DNA of 64,000 nucleotides from Candidatus Woesebacteria bacterium (GCA_020060565.1 JAGVAE010000002.1:243270-307269); one strand, 5' to 3'; positions 1,566 to 64,000 are shown, numbered from the stretch's first letter. The notes: generated by a model not told the origin, from the letters alone. Numbers and translations are program-made.

Positions 1566-1586
1566 AAATTTCTCACCCCCTTTTCA

Positions 1587-2467: not shown

Positions 2468-2487
2468 AATAATGTAAAGTAAATAGT

Positions 2488-6340: not shown

Positions 6341-7673
6341 TTTTTATTTTTTTAAGTAATTCTTCTTTTGTGTTTTCCACTTTTTTCTCAACCACTTCTT
6401 CAAATAACTTTTCTAAAATTTCTCCAACTTTGGGAGATGGGGGAATGTTTAATTCATTCATAACATCTTTCCCGTTGATCTTTAGATCTTTTAAAGAAAA
6501 TGGCTGTTTTTGGACTTCAATTAGTCTTTTTTTAAATTCTTCCAATCTCCAACTGGTTTCTCTAGCTCCTCCACCAAGTCTATCTGCTACACGAAGGGCC
6601 AACATGTCTTCAATGTAGGTGGGGGTAACATTTCTTAAGATTCTTCTTATGGCATTGTCTGTTTGATGTTCATCAACTGTAAATTGGTGCCAGCGAACTA
6701 GCGTTACAAACTTGTCTGTTTCTTTTTTTGAAAATCTTAATCTTTCTGCAATGTTTTCTGCAATTCTGGTTGATACCATTTCGTGGTTATAGAAAGTAAT
6801 GACTCCACTTTCCAATTTCCTATAAGTTTGGGGTTTGCCTATGTCATGAACTAGTGTCGCAAATCTTGTTATTGGATCTTCACTTTTACAGTTTTTAAGT
6901 GACATTAGTAAATGATTTCCTACATCATATATATGGTGTCTTCCTGGAGATTTTTGTTCTACTCCAAAACATTTTTCCATTTCAGGTAAAATTTTGTTCA
7001 AAAGACTAGTGGAACGGAACAAAACCATTCCCTCATATGGGTTGGGAGATTTTAAGAGTTTAAAAAGTTCGTCTTTCACTCTCTCTTTGGCGATTTTGTT
7101 TATTAATGGAACATTTTTTTTGATGGCTTCAAATGTTTCTTTTTCTATAGTAAAACCTAGCTCTGAAGCAATTCTTACCGCCCTCATCATACGCAAGGCA
7201 TCTTCACCAAAGCGCTCATTTGGATCCCCAACTGCTTTTATTTGTTTTTCTTTAATATCTTTCTGACCTGAGAATAAATCAATTACTTTTAAGTCTTTAT
7301 CAAAAGCTAGAGCGTTTATTGTAAAATCACGTCTTTCTAAATCTTCTTCTAGAGTCTTGCCCCAGGTTATTTTGTCTGGATGTCTGGAATCTGAATATCC
7401 CTGCTCGGTTCTAAAGGTTGTTATTTCAAATGGCTTAAGATTATCGTCGCATGACAAACCTACTGTGCCGTAGGTGTTGTCATAGAATCCATCTGGAATT
7501 ACCTTTAAAATTTGTTCTGGGGTAGCATTGGTTGTAAAGTCCCAGTCATTGACCAGTCTGCCCATTAGAACGTCACGTACAGCACCACCGACGATGTAAA
7601 TCTCATACCCTGCTTTGGTGAATCTTTCTAATATGTCTGTTACTGATTTTGGTAGATGGACATTACTTTCCAT
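6327..7673 (-). CDS. cca: CCA-adding tRNA nucleotidyltransferase with HD domain
   Basis: The nucleotidyltransferase head GGAVRDVLMGRLVNDWDFTT is followed by an HD domain with HHIYDVGNHLL and LVHDIGK. Confidence 0.8.
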   Translation of the reverse strand: MESNVHLPKSVTDILERFTKAGYEIYIVGGAVRDVLMGRLVNDWDFTTNATPEQILKVIPDGFYDNTYGTVGLSCDDNLKPFEITTFRTEQGYSDSRHPDKITWGKTLEEDLERRDFTINALAFDKDLKVIDLFSGQKDIKEKQIKAVGDPNERFGEDALRMMRAVRIASELGFTIEKETFEAIKKNVPLINKIAKERVKDELFKLLKSPNPYEGMVLFRSTSLLNKILPEMEKCFGVEQKSPGRHHIYDVGNHLLMSLKNCKSEDPITRFATLVHDIGKPQTYRKLESGVITFYNHEMVSTRIAENIAERLRFSKKETDKFVTLVRWHQFTVDEHQTDNAIRRILRNVTPTYIEDMLALRVADRLGGGARETSWRLEEFKKRLIEVQKQPFSLKDLKINGKDVMNELNIPPSPKVGEILEKLFEEVVEKKVENTKEELLKKIKTISS

Positions 7674-7711
7674 ATAAGTTAAATTATACCAGCATTCAAA
7701 GGTGTAAAAAT

Positions 7712-9313
7712 ATGAGATGGGAGGTACTACATAAAGGGAAAGTTAAGGATCCAATATCTATTATTGATATTCTTCTTAAAAACCGTGGAATTAAGAACAA
7801 AAAGATTTTTTTTAATCCCACTGATCCTTCCAAAATTTCTCTTAAAGACTTGGGAGTTAAATCATTAGAAGTTAAAAAATCTATAGAAAGAATAAAGAAA
7901 GCCAAAAAAAATAAAGAGTTTGTTATTGTTTATGGTGATTATGATGCTGATGGAATAACTGCTACTGCCATTATGTGGGAGAGCCTACATGCTTTTGGAC
8001 TTGATGTTTTGCCTCATATTCCCGATAGATTTGAGGAAGGGTATGGAATTAATGCTGAAAGTGTAAAAAACCTTAAAAACAAGTTTCCTAGACTATCATT
8101 GATTGTTACAGTTGATAATGGAATTGTTGCATATGATGGGGTTGAGGCTGCTAATAAACTGGGAATTGATGTTGTTGTAGTTGATCATCATACAAAAGGT
8201 ACTAAAAAACTTAAGGCCTTTGGAATTATTCATAGTATTGAGGTTTGTGGATCTGCCCTTACTTGGTTTTTTGGACAGCAATTGATCAAATCTACAAATA
8301 CTTTGGAGTTGGCTGCGATTGGAACCATTGCAGATCAACTTCCTTTGGTTGGAGTAAATAGATCAGTTGTTAAGTATGGTCTTGCAGCATTAAACAAAAC
8401 CAAAAGACCAGGACTTCTGGCTCTGTTTAAAGAAGCTGGAATTGAGAATGTTGGAACATATGAAGTTGGCTATATTATTGCGCCTCGTATTAATGCTGCG
8501 GGAAGGCTTAAACACGGACTGGAATCTTTAAGGCTTCTTTGCACAAAAGATAAAGTTAAAGCATTTGATATAGCTTTGGGAATTGGAAAAACTAACTATG
8601 AACGTCAGAAAATTGTTGAGGAAGTGGTAATGATGGCAAGGAAGAATGTTGGCGATCAAAAGGTAATTGTTATTGCGGGAGAGGCCTACCATGAGGGAGT
8701 GATTGGTTTGGCAGCGGGGCGACTGGTTGAGGAATTCTACCGTCCCTCAATTGTTCTTTCTACTAAAGGGAAAGTTTCTAAAGCTTCTGCTAGGTCTATT
8801 TCTGAGTTTAATATAATTGAGGCAATAAGAGGAGTAAATCTTCATTTGGAAGGTGGGGGGCATCCAATGGCTGCAGGTTTTTCAATAGAAACAAGCAAGA
8901 TTGAGATGTTTACTAGTCAAATAAATATTTTTGCTGACAAACTTTTAACAGATGAAATATTAGAAAAGAAATTAAAAATAGATTGTGAAGTGGAGTTTGA
9001 TCAGCTAAATTACGATTTGTTGGGCCAACTTAAACAGTTTGAACCAACTGGACTGGGAAACTTTGGAGCATCCTTTTTAACAAAAGAAGTGGAAGTGGTT
9101 GAGGCAAAAACTGTGGGAAGGGAGGCAAGACACTTAAAACTGAAATTAAAGCAAGGTGAACAAATATTTGATTCAATATATTTTGGTGGGGGAGAAATGT
9201 ACTCAACATTAAATCCTAAGGCTAATGTAGATGTAGTTTATAGTCTTGAGGACAATTCTTGGAATGGATACAAGAATCTTCAGTTAAAAGTTAGAGATCT
9301 TAAGACTAATTAG
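7712..9313 (+). CDS. recJ: single-stranded-DNA-specific exonuclease RecJ
   Basis: The product has a DHH domain (VIVYGDYDADGITATAIM, VVDHH) and a DHHA1 domain (GGGHPMAAGF). The ORF extends upstream to a TTG at 7649. The ATG at 7712 has an AAGGTG RBS and avoids overlap with cca. Confidence 0.8.
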   Translation: MRWEVLHKGKVKDPISIIDILLKNRGIKNKKIFFNPTDPSKISLKDLGVKSLEVKKSIERIKKAKKNKEFVIVYGDYDADGITATAIMWESLHAFGLDVLPHIPDRFEEGYGINAESVKNLKNKFPRLSLIVTVDNGIVAYDGVEAANKLGIDVVVVDHHTKGTKKLKAFGIIHSIEVCGSALTWFFGQQLIKSTNTLELAAIGTIADQLPLVGVNRSVVKYGLAALNKTKRPGLLALFKEAGIENVGTYEVGYIIAPRINAAGRLKHGLESLRLLCTKDKVKAFDIALGIGKTNYERQKIVEEVVMMARKNVGDQKVIVIAGEAYHEGVIGLAAGRLVEEFYRPSIVLSTKGKVSKASARSISEFNIIEAIRGVNLHLEGGGHPMAAGFSIETSKIEMFTSQINIFADKLLTDEILEKKLKIDCEVEFDQLNYDLLGQLKQFEPTGLGNFGASFLTKEVEVVEAKTVGREARHLKLKLKQGEQIFDSIYFGGGEMYSTLNPKANVDVVYSLEDNSWNGYKNLQLKVRDLKTN

Positions 9314-9816: not shown

Positions 9817-11145
9817 ATGGAAAGAACATTGATAGCTGATACTCCAAAGCTAGTTGGGGAGAAAGTAAAAATTAAGGGATTTGTTCATGTGGTTCGTGCC
9901 CATGGCAAGATTGCCTTTGCAGATATCACTGACAGGAGTGGGGTTATTCAGGTTGTGGGTGGGGAAGATCTGGCAGCTCTTAGACCTCAGTATGTGGTTG
10001 AGATTGAAGGAACTGTTAATTCTAGGCCTGAAAAGATGGTTAATGACAAGATTGATACTGGAAAGGTTGAGCTTTCTGTAGAAAAAATTGTAGTTATTGC
10101 TAAGTCTGAAGAGATGCCTTTTGACATGGGGGCAGAAGAACTTAATTTGGAACTTCCCACACTATTAGATTACCGTGCCTTAACTCTAAGGTATCCCAAG
10201 GTTATAGCAATATTTAAAGTTCAGGAAGTTGTCATTGATGCTTTCAGACGTGCGCTTCAGGCCAAGGATTTTATGGAGTTTCAAGCACCTTCTATAATAT
10301 CGTCAGTTCCTGAAGGTGGAGCTGAAGTTTTTAAAGTTGATTATTTTGGCCGCAATGTTTATCTTTCCCAAAGTCCACAACTTTATAAATCATTACTTGT
10401 TGGGGCTTTTGAGCGTGTTTTTAGTGTGAATAAAATATTTAGAGCTGAGCCAAGTGTGACTACAAGGCATTTAACTGAAGTAACTAGTTTGGATGCAGAG
10501 TTTGGTTTTATAGATTCCTGGGAAGAAGTTCAGGAAATGGAGGAGTATGTAGTTAGATTCATTTTCTCTGAGGTTGAAAAGAAGTGTACCAAAGAGCTTG
10601 CCATGTTTGGGGCAACTCTTCCAAAACTTTCTGACAAAATTCCACAAGTTAAATTAAGAGATGCACAGGAAATTATTTTTAAACGAACAGGAAGAGACAT
10701 ACGGGAAGAAAAAGATTTAGCACCTGAGGATGAACGCGAGATTTGTAAGTGGGCGCTGGAGGAAAAAGGAAGTGATTTGGTATTTATTTCTCATTTTGTA
10801 ACAAAGAAGAAGCCTTTCTATGTTTATCCAGATCCTAAGGACCCAACTTATGCATTCTCGGTCGACCTTTTAGGTCGGGGTGTTGAATGGTCAAGTGGGG
10901 GGCAAAGATTAAATGATTACAAAACTATTCTTGAACATGTGAGAGAGTGGGGACTTAAAGAAGAAGATATTGAGCTTTATTTGCAATCTTTTAAGTATGG
11001 TGTTCCCCCATTGGGAGGATTTGCACTGGGTGCGGAGCGCGTGACAATGCACATTTTGGGACTTAAAAATATCCGTGAGGCTTCACTTTTTCCAAGAGAT
11101 ATGGAAAGGGTAGATGTCAGACTCTCCGAGACTGATCAAAAGTAA
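9817..11145 (+). CDS. aspS: aspartate--tRNA ligase, archaeal/eukaryal-type (class IIb)
   Basis: The 442 aa product has an N-terminal OB fold and class II motifs (FRAEPSVTTRHLTEVTSLDAEFGF, GGQR, GGFALGAERV). Its size fits the short archaeal-type AspRS/AsnRS group, and FRAEPS favours Asp. A TATAAT lies 7 nt upstream of the ATG, which suggests a leaderless mRNA. Confidence 0.75.
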   Translation: MERTLIADTPKLVGEKVKIKGFVHVVRAHGKIAFADITDRSGVIQVVGGEDLAALRPQYVVEIEGTVNSRPEKMVNDKIDTGKVELSVEKIVVIAKSEEMPFDMGAEELNLELPTLLDYRALTLRYPKVIAIFKVQEVVIDAFRRALQAKDFMEFQAPSIISSVPEGGAEVFKVDYFGRNVYLSQSPQLYKSLLVGAFERVFSVNKIFRAEPSVTTRHLTEVTSLDAEFGFIDSWEEVQEMEEYVVRFIFSEVEKKCTKELAMFGATLPKLSDKIPQVKLRDAQEIIFKRTGRDIREEKDLAPEDEREICKWALEEKGSDLVFISHFVTKKKPFYVYPDPKDPTYAFSVDLLGRGVEWSSGGQRLNDYKTILEHVREWGLKEEDIELYLQSFKYGVPPLGGFALGAERVTMHILGLKNIREASLFPRDMERVDVRLSETDQK

Positions 11146-51387: not shown

Positions 51388-54048
51388 ATGAATATATTTA
51401 GTAAGATTCTTGATCTTAATGCTAGAGAGATTGGTAGACTTCAGAAAGTAGTTGAAAAAATAAATTCTTTTGAAAGTAGTACTAAAAAGTTGAAAGATTC
51501 TGATTTTAAGAAAAAAACGGAAGAGTTTAAAAAACGTTTGGAAAAAGGAGAATCTTTAGATGATATGCTTCCTGAGGCATATGCTTTAGTTCGTGAAGCA
51601 TCGTGGAGAGTTTTGGGTAAAAGGCATTTTGATGTTCAAATGATGGCTGCTACTGCTCTTTTTGAAGGAAAAGTTGCTGAACAAAAAACTGGAGAAGGTA
51701 AAACCCTGTCTGCTGTCCCCGCGCTTTATCTTAGAGCTCTCACGGGGCGTGGTGTCCATTTGGTTACTGTTAATGATTACCTAGCCAGGCGTGATGCTGG
51801 ATGGAACGGACCCGTATTTCATCTTTTAGGGCTTACCATAGGGTCAATTATTCAGGAAACAAAATCGTTTATTTTTGATCCAGATTTTAATGATTCAAGC
51901 CATGGAGATGAAAGACTTGCACATTTAAAACCGAGTGACAGAAAGGAAGCATATGGTTGCGACATTCTTTATGGAACCAATAATGAATTTGGTTTTGATT
52001 ATTTGAGGGATAACATGGTTTCCTCTTTGGCTGAGATGGTGCAAAGAGGACACTACTTTGCAATAGTTGATGAGGTTGATTCTATCTTAATTGATGAGGC
52101 CCGTACCCCACTTATTATTTCAGCACCTGATACAGAACCAACTCAGAAATATTACAAATTTGCATCCCTGGTTGAGAAACTTAATTCAGATACAGATTTT
52201 AAAATTGATGAAAAAGCTAAGAGCGCAACTCTAACGGAGACAGGAATTACTCGAGTAGAAAAGATACTCGGAGTTGATAATCTATATGAGAAAGATTTTG
52301 ACTCAATTCATCATATAGAAAATGCCTTAAGGGCAAAGACTCTTTATATGAAAGATAAGGATTACGTTGTTAAAGATAACCAGGTAACAATCGTAGATGA
52401 ATTTACAGGACGTCTCATGGTAGGGCGCCGCTGGAGTGATGGACTTCATCAGGCTGTTGAGGCAAAGGAAAATGTAACTATTCAACAAGAAAGTAAAACT
52501 CTAGCAACTATTTCATTCCAGAATTACTTCAGAATGTATGAACACTTAAGCGGTATGACGGGAACTGCTGCAACAGAAGCTGAGGAATTTAGAAAAATAT
52601 ATAAATTGGATGTTGTGGTTATTCCAACTCACAGGGATATGGTTAGAAAAGACTTACCTGACACTATTTACAAAACCTTGCGTGGTAAATATGGTGCAAT
52701 AGTTGAAGATATTGGAGAACTCCACAAGAAAGGTCAGCCGGTTTTGGTGGGTACTACTTCAATTGAAAAGAATGAAATAATTTCTGAATATTTAAAAAGA
52801 AAAAAGATTCCTCACAATGTTTTAAATGCAAAGAACCACGAAAGGGAAGCAGAAATTATTGCTGAAGCAGGGAAGCCTGGAGCTGTAACAGTTGCTACCA
52901 ACATGGCAGGACGTGGAGTTGATATTGTTTTGGGAGGGGCGGAAGGGAAAGAGCGTGAGAAAGTGGTGGGAGCAGGAGGACTCCATGTAATAGGAACGGA
53001 AAGGCATGAAGCAAGACGTGTAGACAATCAGTTAAGGGGTCGTGCGGGACGACAGGGGGACCCTGGAAGTTCTCGCTTTTATCTTTCTTTGGAGGACGAT
53101 CTTATGAGAATTTTCGGTGGGGAACAAATTAGTGGAATTATGGACAAACTGAGTCTTCCCGAGGATCAGCCGATTGAAAATGGACTTATTAGCCGTGCCA
53201 TTGAACAAGCTCAAGTAAAAGTAGAAGGATTTCATTTTGATATAAGAAAACGTTTGGTTGAATTTGATGATGTTGCCAATCAACAAAGGGAAATTATTTA
53301 CACACTAAGGCGCAGAATTCTTGATTCAGGAGATGTTAAGGAAGAGGTTGTTGGAAAACTGAAACATCAAATAGAAAAAGCAGTTAATCTAGAAATAGAT
53401 TTATCAATTGCTCTTGCTGAGATAGTTCCTTTTGATGATGCTTCACTCAAACGTATAAAAAGTGAGATTGAAAAACAGGAGAACAAACAAGAATTTTTGG
53501 AAAAAGTATTAATGGATATTTATGAAAAAAGGGAAAAAGATGTGGGAGAAAAGACAATGCGCGAAGTTGAAAAGTATGCATATTTAGGTTCTATTGATCA
53601 TCTTTGGATGGATCACATTGATCGCATTGATGATTTAAGAGAAGGGGTGACTCTTCGTGCATATGGACAAAGGGATCCTTTAGTTGAGTTTAAGAATGAG
53701 GCATATAACATGTTTGAAACTTTGGTGGATAAAGTTGATGAGGAATTGTCTCATAGAATTTTTAGAATAGGTGTCGCCATCCCACAACCTGAAATTCCAT
53801 TAAATCTTGCAAGAGAAAATATTGATCAATCTGATAGTACTGGTTTGGTTGAGCCATCTAACCACTCAGCCATTAAACCATCTCTCAAACTTGGTCGCAA
53901 CGATCCATGTTGGTGTGGGTCTGGTAAAAAATGGAAAAAGTGCCATATAAATTCTGTACCACAGAGTGGACAAGAAAAGTATTTATTTGATCTATACATT
54001 TCAGACCATAAGAAATGGGAGGATGAAGTTAAGAAACTAAAAAGTTAA
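51388..54048 (+). CDS. secA: preprotein translocase ATPase SecA (with about 33-aa tail after the C-terminal zinc-binding motif)
   Basis: DEAD-like motor motifs and the C-terminal CWCGSGKKWKKCH zinc finger are present. An extra ...INSVPQSGQEKYLFDLYISDHKKWEDEVKKLKS tail follows. Confidence 0.9.
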   Translation: MNIFSKILDLNAREIGRLQKVVEKINSFESSTKKLKDSDFKKKTEEFKKRLEKGESLDDMLPEAYALVREASWRVLGKRHFDVQMMAATALFEGKVAEQKTGEGKTLSAVPALYLRALTGRGVHLVTVNDYLARRDAGWNGPVFHLLGLTIGSIIQETKSFIFDPDFNDSSHGDERLAHLKPSDRKEAYGCDILYGTNNEFGFDYLRDNMVSSLAEMVQRGHYFAIVDEVDSILIDEARTPLIISAPDTEPTQKYYKFASLVEKLNSDTDFKIDEKAKSATLTETGITRVEKILGVDNLYEKDFDSIHHIENALRAKTLYMKDKDYVVKDNQVTIVDEFTGRLMVGRRWSDGLHQAVEAKENVTIQQESKTLATISFQNYFRMYEHLSGMTGTAATEAEEFRKIYKLDVVVIPTHRDMVRKDLPDTIYKTLRGKYGAIVEDIGELHKKGQPVLVGTTSIEKNEIISEYLKRKKIPHNVLNAKNHEREAEIIAEAGKPGAVTVATNMAGRGVDIVLGGAEGKEREKVVGAGGLHVIGTERHEARRVDNQLRGRAGRQGDPGSSRFYLSLEDDLMRIFGGEQISGIMDKLSLPEDQPIENGLISRAIEQAQVKVEGFHFDIRKRLVEFDDVANQQREIIYTLRRRILDSGDVKEEVVGKLKHQIEKAVNLEIDLSIALAEIVPFDDASLKRIKSEIEKQENKQEFLEKVLMDIYEKREKDVGEKTMREVEKYAYLGSIDHLWMDHIDRIDDLREGVTLRAYGQRDPLVEFKNEAYNMFETLVDKVDEELSHRIFRIGVAIPQPEIPLNLARENIDQSDSTGLVEPSNHSAIKPSLKLGRNDPCWCGSGKKWKKCHINSVPQSGQEKYLFDLYISDHKKWEDEVKKLKS

Positions 54049-54056
54049 TCTCTACT

Positions 54057-55640
54057 TTATTCGGAAAAATAGACATTAATCTCGTTATTACCTGCTTCTA
54101 CTTTTTCTAACACGGTTCTCAAAAATTGTTTCTTTCCGAGGAAATCTAAAGTCTTCCAAAACCCGTCAAAGTCTTTGACTGCTTTCCATATTTTTTGTTT
54201 ATCTATCTTTTGTGTTTTTTGATTTTCTTGTCCCTCCGAATATTTTGTCTTCTCCGCAAGTAAATCTTTTTCCAGTTCTCTTAGACGACCTATAGCTTCA
54301 CCATATTCTTCAATATTTATTAACTCTCTTTCAAATGCCTCTTGTTGCTTTTGCCTCATGATTGGAATTTTACTTAATTCTTTTTCAACTCTGTCTAAAG
54401 GAGACTTTCTAGTCTTGGCATCTAAAGGTTTGGACGTTTCTTCGCTTATCAATCTTCTCATGGCAGGGCTGTTAAAGTAATTCCTGACTTGAGAAATAAC
54501 AGAATTTTCTAATTTACTTGCACTCATTACCCTCTGTTGACATTTGATTTTGCCATACATAGTGCCTCCACAACGGTATTCAGCTGTCTCGATATCTTTC
54601 CAATTGGGATTTCTTTTTGAATTTTTGATTCTGCGTTTACAGTAAGTAACACCATTTCCACACCTAATACATTTTGCTATTCCTGTAAGTAACCCCTTGG
54701 ACATTTGAGCCTTACCCTTATATGTTGTTCCTCTTTCTTTTAGGACTTTTTGGACACTCTCAAACAATTTCTCATCCACAATAGGTTTATGAATACCTTT
54801 AACTTCAATTCCTTCATGACCTCTCAACTTTTTTTGCTTTGAAACTTCATAATCTGCATGTCTCCATCCCCACCTCACATATCCAGCGTATGTTTTATTT
54901 CTCAGAATGTAAGAGATTACTTGTGAACTCCAATACGAACCTTTCTTAGGAGGTGTTACTCCTTCCTCGTTAAATCGTAAGGCAATAGTTCTTTTACCAG
55001 CACCAGCCTCACTCATTTGGAAGATTCTTCTTACGGTCTCAGCTTTCTCTTCCTCAACCTCAACCGATCTCAGTACTTTACCGTGTTCATCAAGCGAACG
55101 AACAATTTTATAACCATAAGGAACTTGATTAGGAATCTTGCCATTTGCAGCGATAGCGTTTTTAGCAAGCATCATACGTCTTCTAATTTTGTTACGCTCG
55201 ATTTCGCTCATAACGTCACTTACGCCTTCTACAACCAATCCAAGGTCATCATCTATCGGATCGTATTTCTTCGGGTCTCTAGGTTCAATAGGCGTTGCCA
55301 GAGAGTATGTTTGAATATATTGTCGTTTTAATGCATCTCTAATTTGTGAAGCTTTTACTTTTGAACGAGCAAGTCGGTCAAAATCTTTGACAACTACAAG
55401 ATCAAATTTGCCCGCTCTTGCGTCTGCTAATAAATTCTGCAAACCTGGTCTTTCCTCTAAAAGGTGTCCAGATATACCAGCATCTTGATATTCACATACA
55501 ATCTTCCAACCTCGCTCAATACATATCTTTTTACATGCTCCCAATTGTTCTTCTAATGACGTTTTATCTTCTTTGGCTTGTTCTTGAGTAGAGACTCTTG
55601 TGTAAATAACTGCTCGTATGTGGCCTGTAGTTTCATTCAT
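54057..55640 (-). CDS. large serine recombinase (resolvase/invertase-family integrase with recombinase domain and zinc ribbon)
   Basis: The N-terminal resolvase catalytic domain is AVIYTRVSTQEQ. Recombinase and Cys-rich zinc-ribbon regions (CIRCGNGVTYCKRR...C) follow. The ATG at about 55640 (MNETTGH) was chosen. Confidence 0.8.
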   Translation of the reverse strand: MNETTGHIRAVIYTRVSTQEQAKEDKTSLEEQLGACKKICIERGWKIVCEYQDAGISGHLLEERPGLQNLLADARAGKFDLVVVKDFDRLARSKVKASQIRDALKRQYIQTYSLATPIEPRDPKKYDPIDDDLGLVVEGVSDVMSEIERNKIRRRMMLAKNAIAANGKIPNQVPYGYKIVRSLDEHGKVLRSVEVEEEKAETVRRIFQMSEAGAGKRTIALRFNEEGVTPPKKGSYWSSQVISYILRNKTYAGYVRWGWRHADYEVSKQKKLRGHEGIEVKGIHKPIVDEKLFESVQKVLKERGTTYKGKAQMSKGLLTGIAKCIRCGNGVTYCKRRIKNSKRNPNWKDIETAEYRCGGTMYGKIKCQQRVMSASKLENSVISQVRNYFNSPAMRRLISEETSKPLDAKTRKSPLDRVEKELSKIPIMRQKQQEAFERELINIEEYGEAIGRLRELEKDLLAEKTKYSEGQENQKTQKIDKQKIWKAVKDFDGFWKTLDFLGKKQFLRTVLEKVEAGNNEINVYFSE

Positions 55641-55719
55641 ATTTATATTTTTAATTTTAGTGTGGTACAGGCAAGAATACAACCTTGACAAATAACCAGC
55701 ACAGTTATAGATTTAAGTT

Positions 55720-56032: not shown

Positions 56033-56293
56033 ATGAACAATACGCAAAACAATACTTTCCAATCAACCGATCTCACATTTGTAGCATCCTGCCTACTTGT
56101 TAATAACGATATCCAGTTAATTGCTGTTACCCAGGATCATAAGGGAATTAGGGTTTTCCATCTTTCTCCAATCGGTAAAGTAAAGGGTTTACAAGTTAAT
56201 TATTCCCGTGGGGAAATTCTACTTTCTCCACTTGCTCTAGCTAATCAAATTAGGCAATTAAAAACCTGGCCAGTTACTAACTATGACTATTGA
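56033..56293 (+). CDS. DUF5659-like small phage/mobile-element protein
   Basis: FQSTDLTFVASCLLVNNDIQLIAV...GIRVFHL...LANQIRQLK matches the recalled DUF5659 pattern (TDLYLAxxLLxKGxxL...RVxFxF...FAxALxxLK). Confidence 0.45.
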   Translation: MNNTQNNTFQSTDLTFVASCLLVNNDIQLIAVTQDHKGIRVFHLSPIGKVKGLQVNYSRGEILLSPLALANQIRQLKTWPVTNYDY

Positions 56294-57968
56294 AGAATAT
56301 TTTAGAGAACACAGCTTAAAAGAAGAAACAGCCAAACAATTTGGTTGGACTTGGAATGATAATGTAATTACTATTCCTATTTGTGACCCAGATGGTAACC
56401 TTCTCTACAATCGCTACAGACACCTAAATTACCAAGAAGAGAAAGCTAAGGGTAATCCAAGGGCATCTAAATTCTCAACTGACCCTGGTTCTCATCCTGC
56501 CTTATATGCTGTACATCTCGTTAAAGAAAAAGATACTGTTGTTCTGTGTGAAGGAGAACCAGATTGTGTAAGGCTTTGGCAGGAAGGTATACCGTCTGTG
56601 TGTGGAACTTCTGGGGTTAGAACTGTTGATAAAAAATTTACTTTACCACTAAGAGGAAAGAAAGTATTAATTGTTTTGGATACTGATGAAGATGGCCTTG
56701 AATCTATTGAGAAGTATTACAACATTCTTGTTGAGATCGGAGCAGAACCTTATATAAAGGAAATCCCACCTGAATATAAAGATGTGAGTGAGTATTTTAC
56801 CAATAGTCATACAGGCGAAGACTTTCTGAATCTTACTGAACTTGATTTAGATGATTGGCATATAAAACACGAGCCAGAAGAATTTAAGTGGGAATCTGCT
56901 GCTGATATTAGACAAAAAGAATTGCCAAAGGAAAAGTGGCTTGTTAACAAAGCTATTCCAATAGAGGGATTTACATTTTTTATAGGGCCAGAGGCTTCTA
57001 GCAAGTCGTACCAGTCACTTTCTATTGCGAAATGTGTTGTCACTGGTGAGCCATGGCTGCCCCAAAAACAAGACGAAAATGGTCAGCCTCTATTTAGGGT
57101 ACTTAAAAGAACTAGGGTTTTAATAATGGATAAAGAGTCAACCAAGCGTAGGATTCAAGATAGGTTGAGAGGATATGACATAAACACCAAGGACATTGAG
57201 TTTCTGGCTTATCCACAGAAGTTTGAGATTGCAGAAGTAAACAATACCAGAGAGGCTACAGAGTCAGGATATACTAAATTTTTTGAAAATCTTGCTATTA
57301 AAGTCAAAAAAAATGGTGTTGGGTTAATTATTCTTGACTCGTTTACGGACTTTTTTATTGGTGAAGAAAATGATAGAGGACATGTCCAAAAATTTTTTGA
57401 TTCCTTCCGCCAGATGTTTCCAGGAATAGCTATACTTTGTTTACATCATTCTTCAAAAATGCAACCTGGACAAAGAAAGCCAACATCTCAACTGGGTAGA
57501 GGTTCAACAAATATTATGGCTCAAGCATATACAGCCTTTCATTTTGAGCCTATCCGTAAGTCAAAGACTGAATTTACCGTGGAGCAAACCAAAGCTGGAG
57601 ATTCTTTAAAGCTAAATAAGTTTAAGATTGAATCTCAAATTATAAATGACCCGCTGAATAAAGGTGAGACATTGGTAACGAGCTTCGTATATTTATGTGA
57701 AGTGGATGATAAAACAGAGATTACAAGTGAGGCTTTTGATAAAGCAAAGGAAATTTTAGAAGCTGAAGGAAAAATGTTCAGAAAAGAGTTTGAATCTGAA
57801 ATGAAAGCCGAAGGCTATTCACCAAAGACTGTTACAAATATATTAAAGAGGCTGAAAGATGACGGTTTAATTAAAACAGATAGGAGTAAAGTTGAGGGGA
57901 GAACTAAAGAGATAGAGATTACTTGGCAATATGAAGGTGAAGTTGTTACAGATGATTTAGGTTTATAA
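56283..57968 (+). CDS. primase-helicase-like replication protein (TOPRIM domain plus RepA/AAA_25-like ATPase)
   Basis: The TOPRIM motif is VVLCEGEPDCVRLW..., followed by DTDEDG. The C-terminal P-loop region FIGPEASSKSYQSLSIA has a deviant Walker A, and Walker B-like VLIMDKES and LIILDSF are present. Confidence 0.65.
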   Translation: MTIEEYFREHSLKEETAKQFGWTWNDNVITIPICDPDGNLLYNRYRHLNYQEEKAKGNPRASKFSTDPGSHPALYAVHLVKEKDTVVLCEGEPDCVRLWQEGIPSVCGTSGVRTVDKKFTLPLRGKKVLIVLDTDEDGLESIEKYYNILVEIGAEPYIKEIPPEYKDVSEYFTNSHTGEDFLNLTELDLDDWHIKHEPEEFKWESAADIRQKELPKEKWLVNKAIPIEGFTFFIGPEASSKSYQSLSIAKCVVTGEPWLPQKQDENGQPLFRVLKRTRVLIMDKESTKRRIQDRLRGYDINTKDIEFLAYPQKFEIAEVNNTREATESGYTKFFENLAIKVKKNGVGLIILDSFTDFFIGEENDRGHVQKFFDSFRQMFPGIAILCLHHSSKMQPGQRKPTSQLGRGSTNIMAQAYTAFHFEPIRKSKTEFTVEQTKAGDSLKLNKFKIESQIINDPLNKGETLVTSFVYLCEVDDKTEITSEAFDKAKEILEAEGKMFRKEFESEMKAEGYSPKTVTNILKRLKDDGLIKTDRSKVEGRTKEIEITWQYEGEVVTDDLGL

Positions 57969-58081
57969 CATTAGCAATAGTCGTGGTAACGTTGCCAATG
58001 TTTTTACTTGAGGCTAAATGGGGATGGTTAGTATTCGTTTTGGCATTTTGCTTGGTAAAAAGAAAGTTACTTTGGCACATT

Positions 58082-58103
58082 GGCATATACATATGTATAT
58101 GCC
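58082..58103. repeat. perfect 22-bp palindrome GGCATATACATATGTATATGCC within an imperfect palindrome of about 45 bp
   Basis: The palindrome was seen directly. It lies in the 513-bp AT-rich non-coding region between the primase-helicase gene and the XRE repressor gene. Confidence 0.85.
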
Positions 58104-58481
58104 ATGTGATTACCAAAGTAATCTTTACTCCAAATTTTCTTTTATTTGGAAAATTTTTGTGAGATATGGCGAGCAAGGAACAAATAGTGTGTGGCTGTAG
58201 ACTACTTATATTTTCTGTCCAGCCCCACCCCCATGTATTTTCTAATTACCCAGAGACATATCAAATAAAGATGTACTGGTAGGTATTTCTTGTAAGATGG
58301 GTGGAGTATCTGTGTTTAAAATTTATTGTGCAAGCTTGAGATGGGGGGGAGACGTGTGATTTATTCAGAAATTTAGAGAAGGGGTAGCAAGGCGAGTGAA
58401 TAACCCCTACCGATAGGAAATAGCCCTTTTCTACAGCACAAAATGGCAATTTCGTCCACTACTATAAATGTTTTACCTAAT

Positions 58482-58715
58482 TTAGAAAGGAAGAATATCA
58501 GATGATTTTACATTAAGTACTTTAACTACTTTATAGAAAACTCCTAGCGAAGGGTTTACTTCGCCCCTTTCTATCTTGCTGTAATAGCTTGAATTGATAC
58601 CGACACGCACAGCAACCTCAACCTGAGTTTGTTGCTGATCCTCTCGTACTTTTTTGATTCTTCTTCCAATCTCCTTCCTAATATTGGTTGTAATGTAGTA
58701 ATCAGCCATTAGCAC
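58482..58715 (-). CDS. XRE-family helix-turn-helix transcriptional regulator (Cro/CI-like)
   Basis: The HTH_3 pattern is QQQTQVEVAVRVGINSSYYSKIERGEVNPSLGVFYKVVKVL. Confidence 0.75.
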   Translation of the reverse strand: MLMADYYITTNIRKEIGRRIKKVREDQQQTQVEVAVRVGINSSYYSKIERGEVNPSLGVFYKVVKVLNVKSSDILPF

Positions 58716-58789: not shown

Positions 58790-59038
58790 TTGGCTCTGAA
58801 GGCAAAATTTATGAGAAATCTAATCAAAAATAAAAAGCAACAGTTCATCTGGGTAGCCACATTTTTATTTTTGTTTTACACAAATGCACCTTTCGTTTTT
58901 GCTTTTTGTGTACTTATGGGAGCTATCGCCTTGTCGTGGATTTTTTCTGATCGGATAACCATGAAAGAGCTTAGGAAACAGATGAGGGAATCTGAGAGAT
59001 GGGAAGTAAAAAGACAAAAGTTTATTACTGGAAAATGA
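58790..59038 (+). CDS. hypothetical small membrane protein
   Basis: The 82 aa product has two TM helices and lies divergent from the XRE gene. Confidence 0.35.
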   Translation: MALKAKFMRNLIKNKKQQFIWVATFLFLFYTNAPFVFAFCVLMGAIALSWIFSDRITMKELRKQMRESERWEVKRQKFITGK

Positions 59039-59517
59039 AAAAGATTGTATTAATATTTATAGCTCTAGTGTGGTCAGGTACAGTCTTTGCCTTTGGAATG
59101 AAAGTAGGCATAGATGGAACTGAAAAGAGATTGGCAGATCCAATACTCACCCATCCCAACTACACTGGCCAAGAAATATTGGATGCAGTCAATGAATATA
59201 GACAGACAAAGAAACTATCAACACTCAGACTAGATGAAGAACTTTGTAACAACGTAGTAAATAGGTATTTAGTCTTCAAATCTCCTGAGGCGGATAAAGA
59301 AGGTCATCCTGGTTTTGATGCTTGGGCTGATGCTGAAATAAAGAAGGGTTACAAATATGTTGGTGAAGTATTCTCTGGTGAGTTTACAAAAGAAGAAGTA
59401 ATGAGTGGTTGGAAGGGTTCACCAAGTCACAATGAAGCCTTGGTAAATCCAATCTACAACCGAGGCTGCTCATATGCTGGAGATTATGGAGTTGTCGTTT
59501 TACTTGGTGCTAAATAG
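59035..59517 (+). CDS. CAP/SCP (YkwD-like) domain protein, secreted
   Basis: A signal sequence is followed by a CAP-like region (GHPGFDAW...MSGWKGSPSHNEALVNPIYNRGCSYAGDYGVVVLLG). The ATG at 59035 overlaps the upstream stop (ATGA). It is a paralogue of 161-775. Confidence 0.5.
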   Translation: MKKIVLIFIALVWSGTVFAFGMKVGIDGTEKRLADPILTHPNYTGQEILDAVNEYRQTKKLSTLRLDEELCNNVVNRYLVFKSPEADKEGHPGFDAWADAEIKKGYKYVGEVFSGEFTKEEVMSGWKGSPSHNEALVNPIYNRGCSYAGDYGVVVLLGAK

Positions 59518-60120
59518 TTAGCTTGAATACTTATATACTGCTTTTACAACACCTTCTACCCTAAAATCTTCACCTGCAATAAATGGAGCGTAAGCTGTGT
59601 TGGTAGACCCTAATATTATTTGGTCTTGCCAGTGACTAAATTTTTTAACCATAGCTACCCCACCATCTACACAAATAACAATGTCACCATCTTTGGGAGA
59701 GTTAGTGGCTCTTGCGATGATGTAATCATTCTCTTTTATTAGTGGTGTCATGGAGTCCCCTCGTGCTTTCACCATAAAGGCCTCGCTTGAAGGGAAACCG
59801 AGAATCTTGGTACTTATTGGAATTCTATCAACAGGGTTACCGTCTAAGATTCTGCCATTGGGACCACATTGGGCCAACCCGTACACGTTGAGATAGGTAA
59901 TTTCTTTATCGGGATTGTCGGCTAGAATCTGATAGTCACCAGGATTGTTGGGATTCCTTCTTAAGAATCCTTTCCTTTCCAATTGCAATATATGGTGATG
60001 GACCACGCTAGGGGAAGAGGCTCCAATCCGATCTTGGATGTTCCTTATGCTTAGTCCTTCATCCTTCTCCGATTTTAGTAAGTCTAGTATCTTTTTTTGA
60101 CTGGGATGCAGATCGGGCAT
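59518..60120 (-). CDS. LexA-like repressor (N-terminal wHTH plus C-terminal S24 peptidase domain)
   Basis: The S24 catalytic Ser lies in ARGDSM and the Lys in VKKF. The N-terminal wHTH is LSIRNIQDRIGASSPSVVHHHILQLERKGFL. The putative cleavage region reads LAQCGPNG, with Cys-Gly instead of the usual Ala-Gly. Confidence 0.7.
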   Translation of the reverse strand: MPDLHPSQKKILDLLKSEKDEGLSIRNIQDRIGASSPSVVHHHILQLERKGFLRRNPNNPGDYQILADNPDKEITYLNVYGLAQCGPNGRILDGNPVDRIPISTKILGFPSSEAFMVKARGDSMTPLIKENDYIIARATNSPKDGDIVICVDGGVAMVKKFSHWQDQIILGSTNTAYAPFIAGEDFRVEGVVKAVYKYSS

Positions 60121-60154
60121 GGGTGTATTATGCAGTATAAGTTGACAAAAATCA

Positions 60155-60174
60155 AGAACATTATTGACTGTTCT
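60155..60174. promoter_or_regulatory. inverted repeat AGAACA-N8-TGTTCT overlapping a TTGACT-16-TACAAT promoter in the divergent lexA-like/cassette intergenic region (candidate operator)
   Basis: The repeat was seen directly. TTGACT lies at 60164-60169 and TACAAT about 60186-60191. The arrangement is GAAC...GTTC-like, as in Cheo-type LexA boxes, but with longer spacing. Confidence 0.4.
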
Positions 60175-60202
60175 AGTTTTTGTAGTACAATAGTTTTTAA
60201 TT

Positions 60203-61144
60203 ATGATTCAGGTCAAAAAGAATAAGATCAGAAACTTAGACAGATATTTTGGTTTCTTAAAAGAAGGAGAGCAAATCCGACTTGTTGTTAAATCTTCTGA
60301 TGTTCCTCAAGATAAGATTGTAAAGATAGGTTTTCCTACTAGTTTAGCCAATGGTCAAAAAGTATTACCATCTCCTTTGTTTGGATCTGTTTCTAGTTTT
60401 AATGCGTTGGGTAAAGAAATTGTTAGGAAAGATTTACCAATGGAAACCGCCTACAGAACTGTTGAGTGGCACTGGGAACAGTGGGATGGACCGTACAATA
60501 CAATTCCCATGTCCAAGTTAGTTGATGTTCCATATAAGAGATACCCAAGAGACTTTGTTCCTCCACCATCTAATGAGGTTGAAATTATTCAAAAGGACAA
60601 TGATTTATTCTTTTCTTCCGAGATATTGACGTTTACTCCTGGTGACAAGGAAAACATATTGCATGTAGCAAACTTATTTTTGGAAATCTTTGGTCAGTTT
60701 GAGATTGCCAGCCACAATTTAAGCAGTTATTACACCACTAAAGAGGAAAGACTAAATTGGCAAATTTTGCCTCCTGGTGAATATCCGTGGGAGAAGGTTG
60801 AAGAGAAGCTAAAGCCACTTATTGATTCATTGCCAAAAGGAAACAGACCATGGGCCAAGTACAGGGTGGAGAAAGTTAAGGAATATAAACCAGACTTTCA
60901 TGCTATAGGAACAGGAGGGTTTTGGGGATATGTTGTTTTTGGTTTTACGAGTAAAAATCTCTATGTTTTTGAATGCATAAAGTATGGTAATGCCACCTAT
61001 GTTTTTAACCAGGATTGGAAAGAACTATCTAAACTGACAAAGGCTCAGGTTATACAAGGGGATTTAGCCAAAGCTAGGGTGATTCATCATAAATCCTGGG
61101 TAAAACAGATAGATGAAATTCTCGGAGAAAAACAAAATGGATGA
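60203..61144 (+). CDS. hypothetical protein A (313 aa), first gene of uncharacterised cassette
   Basis: No known domain was recognised. The C-terminal region contains KPDFHAIG...VFECIKYG, which may be a PD-(D/E)xK-like arrangement. Confidence 0.5.
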   Translation: MIQVKKNKIRNLDRYFGFLKEGEQIRLVVKSSDVPQDKIVKIGFPTSLANGQKVLPSPLFGSVSSFNALGKEIVRKDLPMETAYRTVEWHWEQWDGPYNTIPMSKLVDVPYKRYPRDFVPPPSNEVEIIQKDNDLFFSSEILTFTPGDKENILHVANLFLEIFGQFEIASHNLSSYYTTKEERLNWQILPPGEYPWEKVEEKLKPLIDSLPKGNRPWAKYRVEKVKEYKPDFHAIGTGGFWGYVVFGFTSKNLYVFECIKYGNATYVFNQDWKELSKLTKAQVIQGDLAKARVIHHKSWVKQIDEILGEKQNG

Positions 61145-61820
61145 TGAGATTTTAGTTAACCCACTTACCGCTGTTAGGTTGTTTGCCAGAACATACCTAG
61201 CTTTGGGTGAAGAATCTCTTTTTAAAGATAGGAAATTTAAAATAACTAGAGAGGCTTGGATAGCATCCATGTTTCTTTTGGCTCTTAAAAAACACACAAC
61301 TCAGGATTGGTATTTTAAGCCAGAAACTAAGGATGGCTCGCCTGATTTCTATTGCTACACATTTATTGAAGACAAAAGTAAGGGAGGAAATATAAAACCT
61401 CAAATTAAACTTGAAGTTTTTGAATGGAGAAAAGAAGAAGATGAGGCTAATTTTATAGAGGCTTTAAAGAAAATTAAGCTTAATAAAGTTATTGATCCCC
61501 AAATAACAATATTATGTTATATCAGAAGAAATTCAGTAATACCTCCAGCTGTAGATTTGAATAAGAAACTTAAGGAAATCTCTCCTAAGGTGAAAGATAT
61601 CTGGTATCTGGGGGATGTGACACCAGATTCTAAAACTTGGAGGATCACCCAAATATACCCGAATACTTTAGCTATAGACCTGGACTATGATGAGGTTCTA
61701 TCAACTAAAGAGCAACACAGCTTCATCCATTCTTATAGAGGAAAGTCAGAACAACTGGAGTATGAGTCGACAGGTAAAACAGTTAGATTAACACCTGAAT
61801 TTGAATTGAAAGTTGAGTAA
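61137..61820 (+). CDS. hypothetical protein B (227 aa) with PD-(D/E)xK nuclease-like motif
   Basis: An ATGGATGA overlap links it to gene A. The segment ...EAWIASMFLLAL...DGSPDFYCYTFIEDKSKGG...KLEVFEW fits a helix then beta-strand D/PD/ExK restriction-endonuclease-like core. The assignment is inference. Confidence 0.5.
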   Translation: MDDEILVNPLTAVRLFARTYLALGEESLFKDRKFKITREAWIASMFLLALKKHTTQDWYFKPETKDGSPDFYCYTFIEDKSKGGNIKPQIKLEVFEWRKEEDEANFIEALKKIKLNKVIDPQITILCYIRRNSVIPPAVDLNKKLKEISPKVKDIWYLGDVTPDSKTWRITQIYPNTLAIDLDYDEVLSTKEQHSFIHSYRGKSEQLEYESTGKTVRLTPEFELKVE

Positions 61821-61825
61821 CAAAT

Positions 61826-62476
61826 ATGAGTACTGACCAAATAATCACTATTATTTTACAGACACTTGAAGTGCTTGGTGTTCTCGGAGCAACATATTTT
61901 GCAGCTAAGACTGTGAAGCTTTCGCACAATAGTTTGATTGAGCAAAGAGAAAGTGAAGAGCCTGAGGTGGTCATATTTGTAAAACAGTCCAACAATAGTC
62001 TTAATATCATAGATTTGGTCATTAGAAATGAGGGAATAAAAAGTGCTAGAAATATCAAATTTAAGGTGATAGGTAAAAACATAACTTCATTAAGCGACAG
62101 GAAGATTCGTGATATAAGTTTGCTTAAAAATGGAATAGCCTTATTGTCAGGAGGTCAAGAAGTTGTGCAACCCCTAGGTGTAATGCTGGGAGATGCCTTT
62201 AAAGAATATAAAAATGCAAACACCAAGGTACAAGTTACCTACTCAACATCAAATGGAAAGAAGAAGTCTGATTTATTTATTTTGGATTTCAAGGGCTTGA
62301 TTGATAGAAAACTTGGTAAAGACAATATTGAATCAATTGCCGACTCCCTTAAGGATATCCAAGATGAACTACACTCAATCAAAAAGGATATCCATTTGGT
62401 AGCGAACAATGGAATCACCGAACTATTTGCACAGCCAACTTATCCTGGGAAAAATGAAGTAACGCAGCAACTTTAA
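61826..62476 (+). CDS. hypothetical protein C (216 aa), N-terminal TM anchor plus soluble domain
   Basis: It lies 5 nt after gene B. The N-terminal helix is IITIILQTLEVLGVLGATYFAA. No domain was recognised. Confidence 0.5.
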   Translation: MSTDQIITIILQTLEVLGVLGATYFAAKTVKLSHNSLIEQRESEEPEVVIFVKQSNNSLNIIDLVIRNEGIKSARNIKFKVIGKNITSLSDRKIRDISLLKNGIALLSGGQEVVQPLGVMLGDAFKEYKNANTKVQVTYSTSNGKKKSDLFILDFKGLIDRKLGKDNIESIADSLKDIQDELHSIKKDIHLVANNGITELFAQPTYPGKNEVTQQL

Positions 62477-62530
62477 AGTTATTAATAAAGTGAGAGCTTT
62501 ATAAAAAGACTCACAAGTCTTAGAATTAAA

Positions 62531-64000
62531 ATGATGACAAAGCAATTAGACCTACTTAATACTCAAGATAAAAAGAAACCTTGGTCATCTTCTTTAAGGA
62601 AAGCATTTAATTTTTCAAGAACTTCAGGATGGCCAGATGTTTTTTCTCAACAGCTAAGGAAATGGTCTAAGGACAATAAGATAGCTATTAACACCTTAAG
62701 CCTGTTCTCTGGAGGTGGAGGGCTAGATATTGGATTCCATGATGCAGGATTCAAGATAAAAGAGATGGTTGAGATAGAAGAGAAATATGTAAAAACTCTT
62801 TTGCACAATAACAAAAATTGGTTTGATGACTCAAAGATTAATTGTGTAGATATTAGAGAGTATAAACCAGAAAACCTCAAGGTAGATTTCATAATTGGAG
62901 GGCCTCCATGTCAAACCTTCTCTGCTGCTGGTAGAAGAGCAAAGGGGGTAATGGGAATAGACGATCCAAGAGGTAATCTTTTTAAGGAGTATGTACGACT
63001 TTTACAAACTTTAAAGCCAAAGGGATTTTTGTTTGAAAACGTATATGCATTAATTGGGGCACAAAAAGGGAAGCCCTGGAAGCTTATATTAGAAGGATTT
63101 GATTCCGTAGGATATAAAGTACATTATAAAGTTTTGGATGCAGCTGACTACGGAGTACCCCAGCATCGGGAAAGAATTATTATTGTAGGAATAAGGAAAG
63201 ATTTAAATAAGTCGTTTAAGTTTCCATATCCGCTTTGTGGACCAGACTCTACAGAAGAAGAACCCCATTACTCTGCAAAAGAAGCGATAGGTGGTGTGAG
63301 ATTAGACGAAAAGATTAAGCCCGTTAATGGTAAGTATGGCCACTTATTAGACGGTATTCCACCAGGATTAAATTATAGTTTCTACACAGACAAGATGGGA
63401 CACCCCAACCCTGTATTTGGTTGGAGAAGTAAGTTTTCTGATTTTCTTTATAAAGCTGATCCAAATAAACCCGTAAGAGCGATTAAAGCTCAAGGGGGAC
63501 AATATACTGGTCCTTTTAGTTGGGAAAACCGTTTTTTTCATTTATCTGAACTTAAAAGATTGCAAACATTTCCTGACAACTATGAAATTGTTGGGTCAAG
63601 GAATGTTGTTGTAGAGCAAATAGGAAATTCAGTACCCCCGCAATTTGCAAGAATACTTGCTTTATCAGTATTGGATCAAATCTTTGATGTAAAACTTCCA
63701 CTTAATATTCCATATATGGAGGATAGTATCCAGCTTGGATTTCGCACAAGGACACGAGAGTTGACGAAAGAATATGAGCAAAAAGCCAGAGAAGCTATAA
63801 AACTCATGGTAAAAAGTGATGGACCGAAGTCTAGAAGGATACCGCAGACAAAAGACATAAGGTACTTGTTGTTAAATAAAATGAAGTGGCTTAAGAAAAA
63901 AGTTGATGATGCTACTGAGATTATAGTCAAACATGCAGAAAAAGAAGGTGATGTCTGGGAGATTACTGCAAGCAATAAAAATATTGAAAATAAAAAGATT
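62531..64000 (+). CDS. DNA (cytosine-5)-methyltransferase (3' end outside window)
   Basis: This ORF is absent from the supplied six-frame track. The frame is open to the window end. Motif I is LFSGGGGLDIGF, motif IV GGPPCQTFS, motif VI ENV, motif VIII QHRERIIIVG and motif X GNSVPPQFA. A further C-terminal extension follows. Confidence 0.85.
   Translation, partial: MMTKQLDLLNTQDKKKPWSSSLRKAFNFSRTSGWPDVFSQQLRKWSKDNKIAINTLSLFSGGGGLDIGFHDAGFKIKEMVEIEEKYVKTLLHNNKNWFDDSKINCVDIREYKPENLKVDFIIGGPPCQTFSAAGRRAKGVMGIDDPRGNLFKEYVRLLQTLKPKGFLFENVYALIGAQKGKPWKLILEGFDSVGYKVHYKVLDAADYGVPQHRERIIIVGIRKDLNKSFKFPYPLCGPDSTEEEPHYSAKEAIGGVRLDEKIKPVNGKYGHLLDGIPPGLNYSFYTDKMGHPNPVFGWRSKFSDFLYKADPNKPVRAIKAQGGQYTGPFSWENRFFHLSELKRLQTFPDNYEIVGSRNVVVEQIGNSVPPQFARILALSVLDQIFDVKLPLNIPYMEDSIQLGFRTRTRELTKEYEQKAREAIKLMVKSDGPKSRRIPQTKDIRYLLLNKMKWLKKKVDDATEIIVKHAEKEGDVWEITASNKNIENKKI

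Follow-up and report, generated by a model that had tools for sequence, protein, structure and literature searches.

The 64-kb stretch of DNA analysed here (64,000 nucleotides (nt), referred to as the window) comes from a Candidatus Woesebacteria bacterium. At its right-hand end it carries a gene for a LexA-type repressor, here called lexA (positions 59518..60120, minus strand), and, divergent from it, three closely packed genes that we refer to as A (60203..61144, plus strand, 313 amino acids (aa)), B (61137..61820, plus strand, 227 aa) and C (61826..62476, plus strand, 216 aa). These are followed in the same orientation by a gene for a Dcm-type C5-cytosine methyltransferase (C5-methyltransferase; 62522..64000, plus strand), which runs off the end of the window and encodes at least 492 aa. 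The ATG of B (61137) and the TGA of A (61142-61144) both lie inside the sequence ATGGATGA, the gap between B and C amounts to 5 nt, and a scan of the region found no terminator-like site between A and the methyltransferase gene. All of this lies inside an integrated mobile element of a candidate phyla radiation (CPR)/Patescibacteria genome; the element starts at 54,057 and extends beyond the end of the window. An initial annotation had described these open reading frames (ORFs), their sizes, the overlap, the gap and the divergent S24 repressor gene exactly as we find them, and had interpreted A, B, C and the methyltransferase as a single candidate restriction or defence module. We judge it on balance probable that the region is instead a mosaic of separately mobile genes and not one new restriction system, with a conflict function induced by damage or infection as its most likely role.

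This judgement follows from the genomic distribution of the genes. A genome scan for A yielded 80 loci from other genomes (117 loci were fetched overall and are referred to by L numbers where they have to be told apart). Neither B nor C occurred in any of these 80 loci, and a C5-methyltransferase was found near A in two lineages only, L001-3 and L005. The proposed module of A, B, C and the methyltransferase therefore failed the synteny check in relatives; what holds up of the initial interpretation is its regulatory part, together with the general notion of defence-type cargo. A was without a methyltransferase in most of the 80 genome loci, on the plasmids that were inspected and in two Escherichia coli islands. 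Since both A and B are widespread without the methyltransferase, neither can be its obligate restriction partner. As the restriction enzyme that would belong to this methyltransferase, A was rejected on account of its many occurrences away from methyltransferases and its lack of a nuclease fold, and B because it is present in other lineages without a methyltransferase.

A co-evolved, repressor-controlled restriction or defence system, in which A and/or B would act as the nuclease while the methyltransferase protects the host DNA, is in our view very improbable. Such a system would fit the tight packing of the genes, with their overlap, their 5-nt gap and no terminator, as well as the restriction-endonuclease-like fold of B and the C5-methyltransferases that are also found near lexA and A in L001 and L005. 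The latter enzymes, however, are only 31-34% identical to that of the window and are differently placed, B occurs in ∼15 other lineages without a methyltransferase, and no annotated methyltransferase was found within 9 kb of A in the two inspected E. coli islands, a situation that would be intolerable for an unprotected restriction enzyme. In addition, A has no nuclease fold and no PADLOC system was matched.

The divergent regulator combines a LexA_DNA_bind domain (PF01726, 1e-10, aa 1-60) with a Peptidase_S24 domain (PF00717, 1.6e-18, aa 79-192). Its catalytic dyad, Ser123 in GDS123M and Lys159 in VK159K, aligns with the corresponding residues of the Mycobacterium tuberculosis LexA C-terminal domain, and the linker GLAQC85-G86PNG holds a putative Cys85-Gly86 cleavage site where LexA has Ala-Gly. 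Cys-Gly is the cleavage site of the UmuD type. Because the score with the LexA equivalog TIGR00498 (89.5 bits) is under the cut-off of 110.95, we call the protein LexA-type rather than LexA. With the canonical LexA and SOS box arrangement, for instance that of Bacillus subtilis yneA, the locus shares the domain architecture, the Ser/Lys dyad, a divergent target gene and a palindromic operator with GAAC and GTTC half-sites over the promoter. It differs in the spacing between GAAC and GTTC (N10 in the window, not N4), in the putative cleavage site, in the score under the NCBIfam cut-off and in its location inside a mobile element. LexA orthologues with 54-64% identity are encoded divergently from A orthologues in L001-3, L004, L005 and L017.

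Between lexA and A lies a perfect palindrome, AGAACA-N8-TGTTCT (60155..60174), of which the 64 kb contain a single exact copy, compared to 0.01 copies expected from shuffled sequences; further copies with one mismatch occurred at chance level only. The palindrome contains the -35 box of the A-operon promoter (TTGACT-16-TACAAT, 60164..60191, plus strand), which is the joint-best match in the region in a consensus scan (10/12), and its left arm abuts the -35 box of a candidate lexA promoter (TTGATT-17-CATAAT, 60127..60155, minus strand, 9/12). This contact with the left arm would imply autoregulation, and with the operator covering the -35 box of the one promoter and touching the other, one bound dimer could repress both genes. 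Among the 117 fetched loci the exact palindrome turned up only 5' of A homologues, namely in L001, L005, L006 and L017. In L001, L005 and L017 all 12 specified bases are kept, along with their spacing and their position across a TTGAC -35 box; L006 is a short contig in which the palindrome is present, and L004 retains one half-site only. Because the palindrome is unique in the window and recurs 5' of A homologues, LexA-type control of A is well supported. Judged from this conservation, the sequence appears to be a genuine operator that is maintained in evolution and is common to the promoters of the repressor gene and gene A, and both the operator and the promoter had been correctly placed in the initial annotation. 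We infer that the repressor binds here and that the A operon is induced by DNA damage.

Three further features of this intergenic region were observed. First, only 11 nt separate the -10 box TACAAT from the ATG of A (window 60186-60205), and no Shine-Dalgarno sequence is visible. With such a short distance the A mRNA would be leaderless or nearly so. The start codon of A is right, because the N-terminus of A aligns with the rest of the family. Second, the same layout is present in L004, where TACAAT is followed by 8 nt and ATG. Third, a direct copy of TGTTCT lies 6-7 nt past the right arm of the palindrome in L001 (7937-7975), L005 (7918-7950) and L017 (7901-7935), which gives three half-sites in all. 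The stretch reads TGTTCTAGTnTTTGTTCTA in L001 and L005, and in the window the third copy has degenerated to GTAGTA, overlapping the -10 box. A direct-repeat LexA motif is said to have been cited for Patescibacteria by Sanchez-Osuna in 2017.

The full LexA architecture and the autoregulatory operator would also fit a quite different situation, in which lexA encodes the SOS master repressor of the cell itself and A is a divergent SOS gene, with B, C and the methyltransferase as unrelated followers. The genes yneA, chiZ and divS adjoin lexA in Gram-positive bacteria, and A would be their counterpart. In agreement with this, the identities of LexA and A co-vary across CPR lineages, the GAAC and GTTC half-sites are those of the Gram-positive LexA box, and in L001 the lexA-A pair is located among housekeeping genes (RNase Y, HU, rpoB/C). 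We nevertheless consider this explanation unlikely, because the pair in the window is flanked by element genes (a serine recombinase, an XRE-type regulator and a CAP-domain gene on the left, B and C on the right), the score of the repressor is under the NCBIfam LexA equivalog cut-off, A is elsewhere mostly found in mobile elements and defence islands, and the 64 kb hold no other copy of the operator.

The family to which gene A belongs is large and has no name; its members are single-domain proteins of ∼305 aa. A word-indexed search returned 584 matches, and the family comprises 1,991 representative clusters at 50% identity. Nearly all members consist of a single domain of 300-315 aa, and an alignment of 28 diverse members contains 47 invariant columns. 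The distribution of A is patchy across phyla, with the 80 loci coming from CPR, Proteobacteria (Enterobacter, Kluyvera, Raoultella), Firmicutes, Actinobacteria, Chloroflexi, Cyanobacteria and one archaeon. A was present on 21 plasmids, where it is annotated as hypothetical every time and can stand by itself on small ones. It was also found in 24 IMG/VR contigs of viral or proviral nature, and it is rare in deposited phage genomes (1 of 50,697 records). Homologues were found in 100 of 5,426 complete E. coli genomes (∼2%). In the two E. coli loci that were inspected (L116 and L117, 8995-9909), A is a solitary gene, annotated as a hypothetical protein, in a terminal position on an island linked to tRNA-Gly or tRNA-Leu, with a truncated integrase or an IS3 element as its neighbour. 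Of the two islands, one carries a capsid gene and resembles a phage satellite. In other phyla, the settings of A are overwhelmingly mobile elements, including the ends of prophages, and defence islands.

The company of A was surveyed by taking two genes on each side of it in ∼65 non-redundant loci, which were clustered and scanned with Pfam. Among 110 upstream neighbours, the domains Peptidase_S24 (10), LexA_DNA_bind (9), HTH_3 (9), Peptidase_M78 (8) and AAA_21 and AAA_15 (6 each) recurred, together with integrases and resolvases. PADLOC labels on the neighbours were RmrA-like (11), PDC-S16 (11), capP (8), capH (7), AbiLi (7) and AriA (6). Downstream, DUF2188, which corresponds to the PADLOC candidate PDC-S16, was found 11 times; the downstream neighbours were otherwise highly variable and included Type I specificity subunits. 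DUF2188 has reportedly been placed in defence by Burroughs and Aravind (2020). Tightly linked neighbours of A included Trypsin_2, Shedu SduA, a Schlafen/Fic protein, an SNase nuclease, small GIY-YIG proteins and HNH nucleases, and on a Leptospira plasmid A is preceded at ∼260 nt by a DUF2971 gene. The S24 gene is co-directional with A in L016 and L040, 3-7 nt upstream of it, whereas it is divergent in others, which argues that the link between S24 regulators and A has been built more than once. In the papers searched, no mention was found of the RefSeq accessions of A homologues or of "PDC-S16".

One gene block deserves separate description. In L068, L070, L072, L074-L076 and L081 (Lachnospiraceae and other gut Firmicutes, ∼6390-9150), a gene for an AbiLi/AriA-like ABC ATPase (443 aa) is followed after a gap of 276 nt by A and then by DUF2188, and the block recurs beside a MobA/MobL relaxase gene. 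No TOPRIM/AbiLii-type partner of the ATPase was seen in the block, and A might occupy the place of such a partner there. An identification of A with a known Abi or Rosmer protein, or with another one from PADLOC, was rejected, because it matched none of their models, including those of RmrT, even though it follows AbiLi-like ATPases in seven loci.

One of the closest known parallels to the arrangement in the window comes from the defence operons, CBASS and others, that are controlled by CapH and CapP. Lau et al. 2022 (bioRxiv 10.1101/2022.04.27.489752) described a CapH/CapP-controlled operon of "DUF2188 + hypothetical protein" among putative defence systems. The gene order in L011 and L078 fits this description, the comparison being one with the description only, and going by gene order only the "hypothetical proteins" of that study would be members of the A family. 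In both situations a conflict-type operon is preceded by a DNA-damage-sensing repressor module that is encoded divergently from it, and in 7-8 A-family loci the regulators match the capP and capH models, with A followed by DUF2188. Unlike CapH/CapP and RosmerTA, the window uses a one-protein S24 repressor and not a pair of a helix-turn-helix (HTH) protein and an M78 (ImmA/IrrE-type) peptidase, and unlike the CapH/CapP operons it is without DUF2188 and without CBASS genes.

What the A protein itself does was approached by family and fold searches. As had been noted before, none of A, B and C can be assigned to a named family: in Pfam, NCBIfam and PADLOC the only match was a weak one of A to the ZorC "EH signature", and PHROG yielded matches of unknown function for C and has no model for the A family. 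The earlier suggestion that A is a PD-(D/E)xK nuclease with a PDF...ECIK motif had to be abandoned, given that fold searches, including Foldseek against the Protein Data Bank (PDB), found no nuclease fold and that the motif residues D231 and K260 are not conserved. The C-terminal part of A weakly resembles the EH-signature DNA-binding domain of ZorC. In Zorya, ZorC is an EH-signature DNA-binding protein that acts together with the ZorD nuclease (PMC11946911). A is shorter than ZorC (305 aa versus ∼480-560 aa), and neither ZorA/ZorB (MotAB-like) nor ZorD (an Snf2 helicase-nuclease) was found in the window or among the recurrent neighbours of A. A separate observation concerns plasmid 5 of Lactococcus cremoris SK11, a mobilizable plasmid of 14 kb, on which A lies 18 nt after the gene for a 1,560-aa DEAD/DEAH-box helicase (L096, 304-5915). 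This pair is reminiscent of ZorC with ZorD.

Gene B has 53 homologues, all of them from CPR. Its protein has a PD-(D/E)xK (restriction-endonuclease-like) core of the alpha-beta-beta-beta-alpha-beta type and was compared with members of that superfamily (PA4535/1Y0K-like proteins, CdiA-CT toxins, type II/IIS endonucleases and HamA), from which it differs in having no evident canonical (D/E)xK triplet; no sequence-level match to any of the nuclease family models was obtained. The conserved residues are E39, P69-D70, K91, E93, E96, R98 and K99. The second core strand begins with an invariant P69-D70, and the next strand, K91-L-E93-V-F-E96-W-R98-K99, has no plain ExK. The PD-(D/E)xK core first proposed for B can thus be kept as far as the fold and P69-D70 are concerned, whereas the E, D and K residues that had been named for it are not conserved. 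B was examined in ∼15 other lineages (L084-L115), where it was never near A, LexA or a C5-methyltransferase; it was not found in viral contigs.

Two other surroundings of B were seen. In L104-L107 (∼1094-3300) the stop codon of B overlaps (-4) with the beginning of the gene for a large serine recombinase, so that B may be tied to the recombinase end of CPR elements. In L084 and L085 (5904-7690; Chazhemtobacterium and a related contig), an SDH_protease (ClpP/SppA-like) gene, a 59-aa ORF, B and a DUF2130 gene follow each other, which is possibly another module that contains B.

For gene C, 10 homologues were found, with PHROG matches of unknown function only (phrog_9607 for C itself, 1e-8). The protein has one N-terminal hydrophobic segment (residues 6-24, Kyte-Doolittle 19-residue mean of 1.69). 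The hydrophobic segment of the previously suggested membrane anchor is therefore present, and the hydropathy profile is consistent with a putative anchor. C stands by itself in L090, in L092 it comes after the gene of a small HTH protein, and in L094/95 and L103 it adjoins B, so that adjacency of B and C is known from three lineages including that of the window.

The methyltransferase gene was correctly recognised from the start. Its product matches PF00145 (2.9e-67) and TIGR00675, and the motifs FSGGGG, PPCQ, ENV, QHRER and GNSV (motifs I, IV, VI, VIII and X) are all present, from which the enzyme looks catalytically intact. Its N-terminus is extended by 55 aa, and at the C-terminus an extension of 110 aa or more is cut by the window end. 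The best PHROG match is phrog_116, "DNA methyltransferase". A complete PF00145 domain, the phrog_116 match and the finding that no co-inherited nuclease was present among the loci compared are shared with orphan Dcm-type C5-methyltransferases of phages and mobile elements, from which the two extensions set it apart. The C-terminus and the gene downstream lie outside the window, and a fused or adjacent nuclease could be encoded there; no record of the window's proteins was found, and an exact 52-mer had no match among metagenome contigs. In three of five close lineages a C5-methyltransferase gene is located at most three genes from lexA-A, namely in the window, in L001 (6144-7277) and in L005 (∼10006-10875); the copy in L001 lies 19 nt after lexA on the same strand.

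The element that carries these genes begins directly after the housekeeping gene secA (51388-54048, SecA domains). Its left edge is formed by a large serine recombinase gene (54057..55691, minus strand; Pfam Resolvase, Recombinase and Zn_ribbon_recom). Then follow a gene for a Toprim/AAA_25 primase-helicase-like replication protein of the element (56283..57968, plus strand; AAA_25 2.8e-22, Toprim_2 4e-9), a gene for an XRE-type HTH regulator (58482..58715, minus strand; HTH_3 1.6e-12) and a gene for a CAP-domain protein with an N-terminal hydrophobic segment (58999..59517, plus strand; PF00188 1.8e-6), after which come lexA, A, B, C and the methyltransferase. With the recombinase right after secA and element-type genes on its flanks, the locus has the mobile-element location that had been assumed for it. 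The ∼500 nt between the primase-helicase and XRE genes (57969-58481) contain only short overlapping low-complexity ORFs on both strands and gave no Rfam match; they could be a replication origin or regulatory region of the element. Apart from this, an Rfam scan of 53-64 kb and a repeat scan of 53.5-64 kb showed nothing relevant.

Comparison with related CPR contigs suggests how the locus was put together. Homologues of the XRE, CAP-domain, B, C and serine recombinase genes recur together in other CPR contigs that are without lexA-A: XRE homologues (cluster c3) stand beside B in L094, L099 and L101, and CAP-domain homologues (cluster c7) stand 5' of B in L101 and L115. The CAP-domain gene is a backbone gene of this element family, and the slot between it and B is variable, being occupied by other genes in the related contigs. 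In the window the stop codon of the CAP-domain gene abuts that of lexA and the end of A overlaps the start of B, so that the lexA-A pair fills this slot exactly. We read the overlap between A and B as a module junction, with no spare bases on either side.

The presence of the pair inside an element with a recombinase and a primase might also be taken to mean that the LexA-like protein is the lysogeny or maintenance repressor of the element, comparable to CI or SetR, and that A, B and C are early genes for its induction, excision or replication and not conflict genes. S24 repressors commonly control the induction of prophages and integrative elements, and the direct position of B before the serine recombinase gene in L104-L107, with overlap, would fit as well. 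We hold this to be quite improbable. Related elements with B, C, the XRE gene and the CAP-domain gene do without lexA-A, and the pair is therefore not part of their core switch. Moreover, A stands alone on small plasmids and at the ends of islands, it adjoins known defence genes, and it is found in a single one of the 50,697 phage records.

Taken together, we propose that the region is cargo of an integrated CPR element and consists of three independently mobile modules. The first would be the divergent pair of the lexA-like S24 repressor gene and gene A that shares AGAACA-N8-TGTTCT. The repressor would silence lexA and A until DNA damage occurs, upon which RecA-stimulated self-cleavage (Ser123/Lys159, at Cys85-Gly86) would lift the repression. 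For A the best lead is DNA binding through its ZorC-EH-like C-terminal region, and its family has, in different phyla, been placed under two unrelated kinds of DNA-damage-sensing regulator, the LexA-like S24 type and the CapH/CapP-like pair of an HTH protein and an M78 peptidase. The second module would be B-C, a nuclease-like protein with PD-(D/E)xK fold and a membrane-anchored protein, as backbone or cargo of CPR serine-recombinase elements. The third would be the orphan C5-methyltransferase, for which self-protection of the element against restriction is the simplest role. Insertion of the lexA-A module ahead of B-C would have brought A, B, C and probably the methyltransferase under DNA-damage control, since with no terminator between A and the methyltransferase the four genes probably form one LexA-controlled transcript. 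The likely role would then be a damage- or infection-induced conflict function, either defence or exclusion, and not classical restriction-modification.

A more ambitious version of this proposal, which we regard as rather doubtful, would make LexA-A-B-C a working damage-gated abortive-infection or exclusion system. A would be a ZorC-EH-like DNA-binding sensor or adaptor that acts alone or with interchangeable nuclease or NTPase partners, and the proteins encoded beside it (B, GIY-YIG, HNH and SNase proteins, AbiLi-type ATPases, the 1,560-aa helicase of the Lactococcus plasmid and DUF2188) could be such partners. In the window, A would sense DNA, B would be the nuclease and C its membrane partner, while the methyltransferase would shield the element; LexA-type S24 repressors and CapH/CapP would have been recruited convergently to gate A.

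Several points weigh against the proposed mosaic under damage control. ZorC was not recovered when full-length and C-terminal profiles of A were run against PDB sequences, nor with Foldseek against PDB, and because ZorC was not recovered from the A side, homology between A and ZorC is unproven. The tight overlap of A and B and the 5-nt gap between B and C would fit a co-adapted system too. The proximity of a C5-methyltransferase to lexA-A in three of five close lineages could reflect a functional tie, although it could also be a chance enrichment on CPR mobile elements. The absence of a second operator from the 64 kb means that no sign of a wider SOS regulon is seen there. LexA was assessed within the window, and further lexA genes may be present elsewhere in the genome; the right end of the element and the C-terminus of the methyltransferase likewise lie beyond the 64 kb.

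The locus is thus of a known kind, in which a DNA-damage-sensing repressor controls the cargo or defence genes of a mobile element, and it is the large unnamed A family that seems most worth pursuing. If A is functional, a large family (∼2,000 clusters at 50% identity, from many phyla) for which Pfam, NCBIfam, PHROG and PADLOC have no dedicated model would join the candidate conflict genes, and since ∼2% of complete E. coli genomes carry A, a model organism is at hand for direct tests. For the scanning of genomes, the locus illustrates that genes can come to be tightly packed where two modules meet, to the point that a stop codon overlaps a start codon, and that such packing is no proof of a co-evolved system. 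AGAACA-N8-TGTTCT would provide a concrete LexA-type operator, as predicted from its conservation, for CPR bacteria, which to our knowledge cannot be cultured. Finally, the repeated and independent placement of A under two damage-sensing switches suggests a general rule, namely that certain genes for defence or exclusion stay switched off until an SOS signal arrives.

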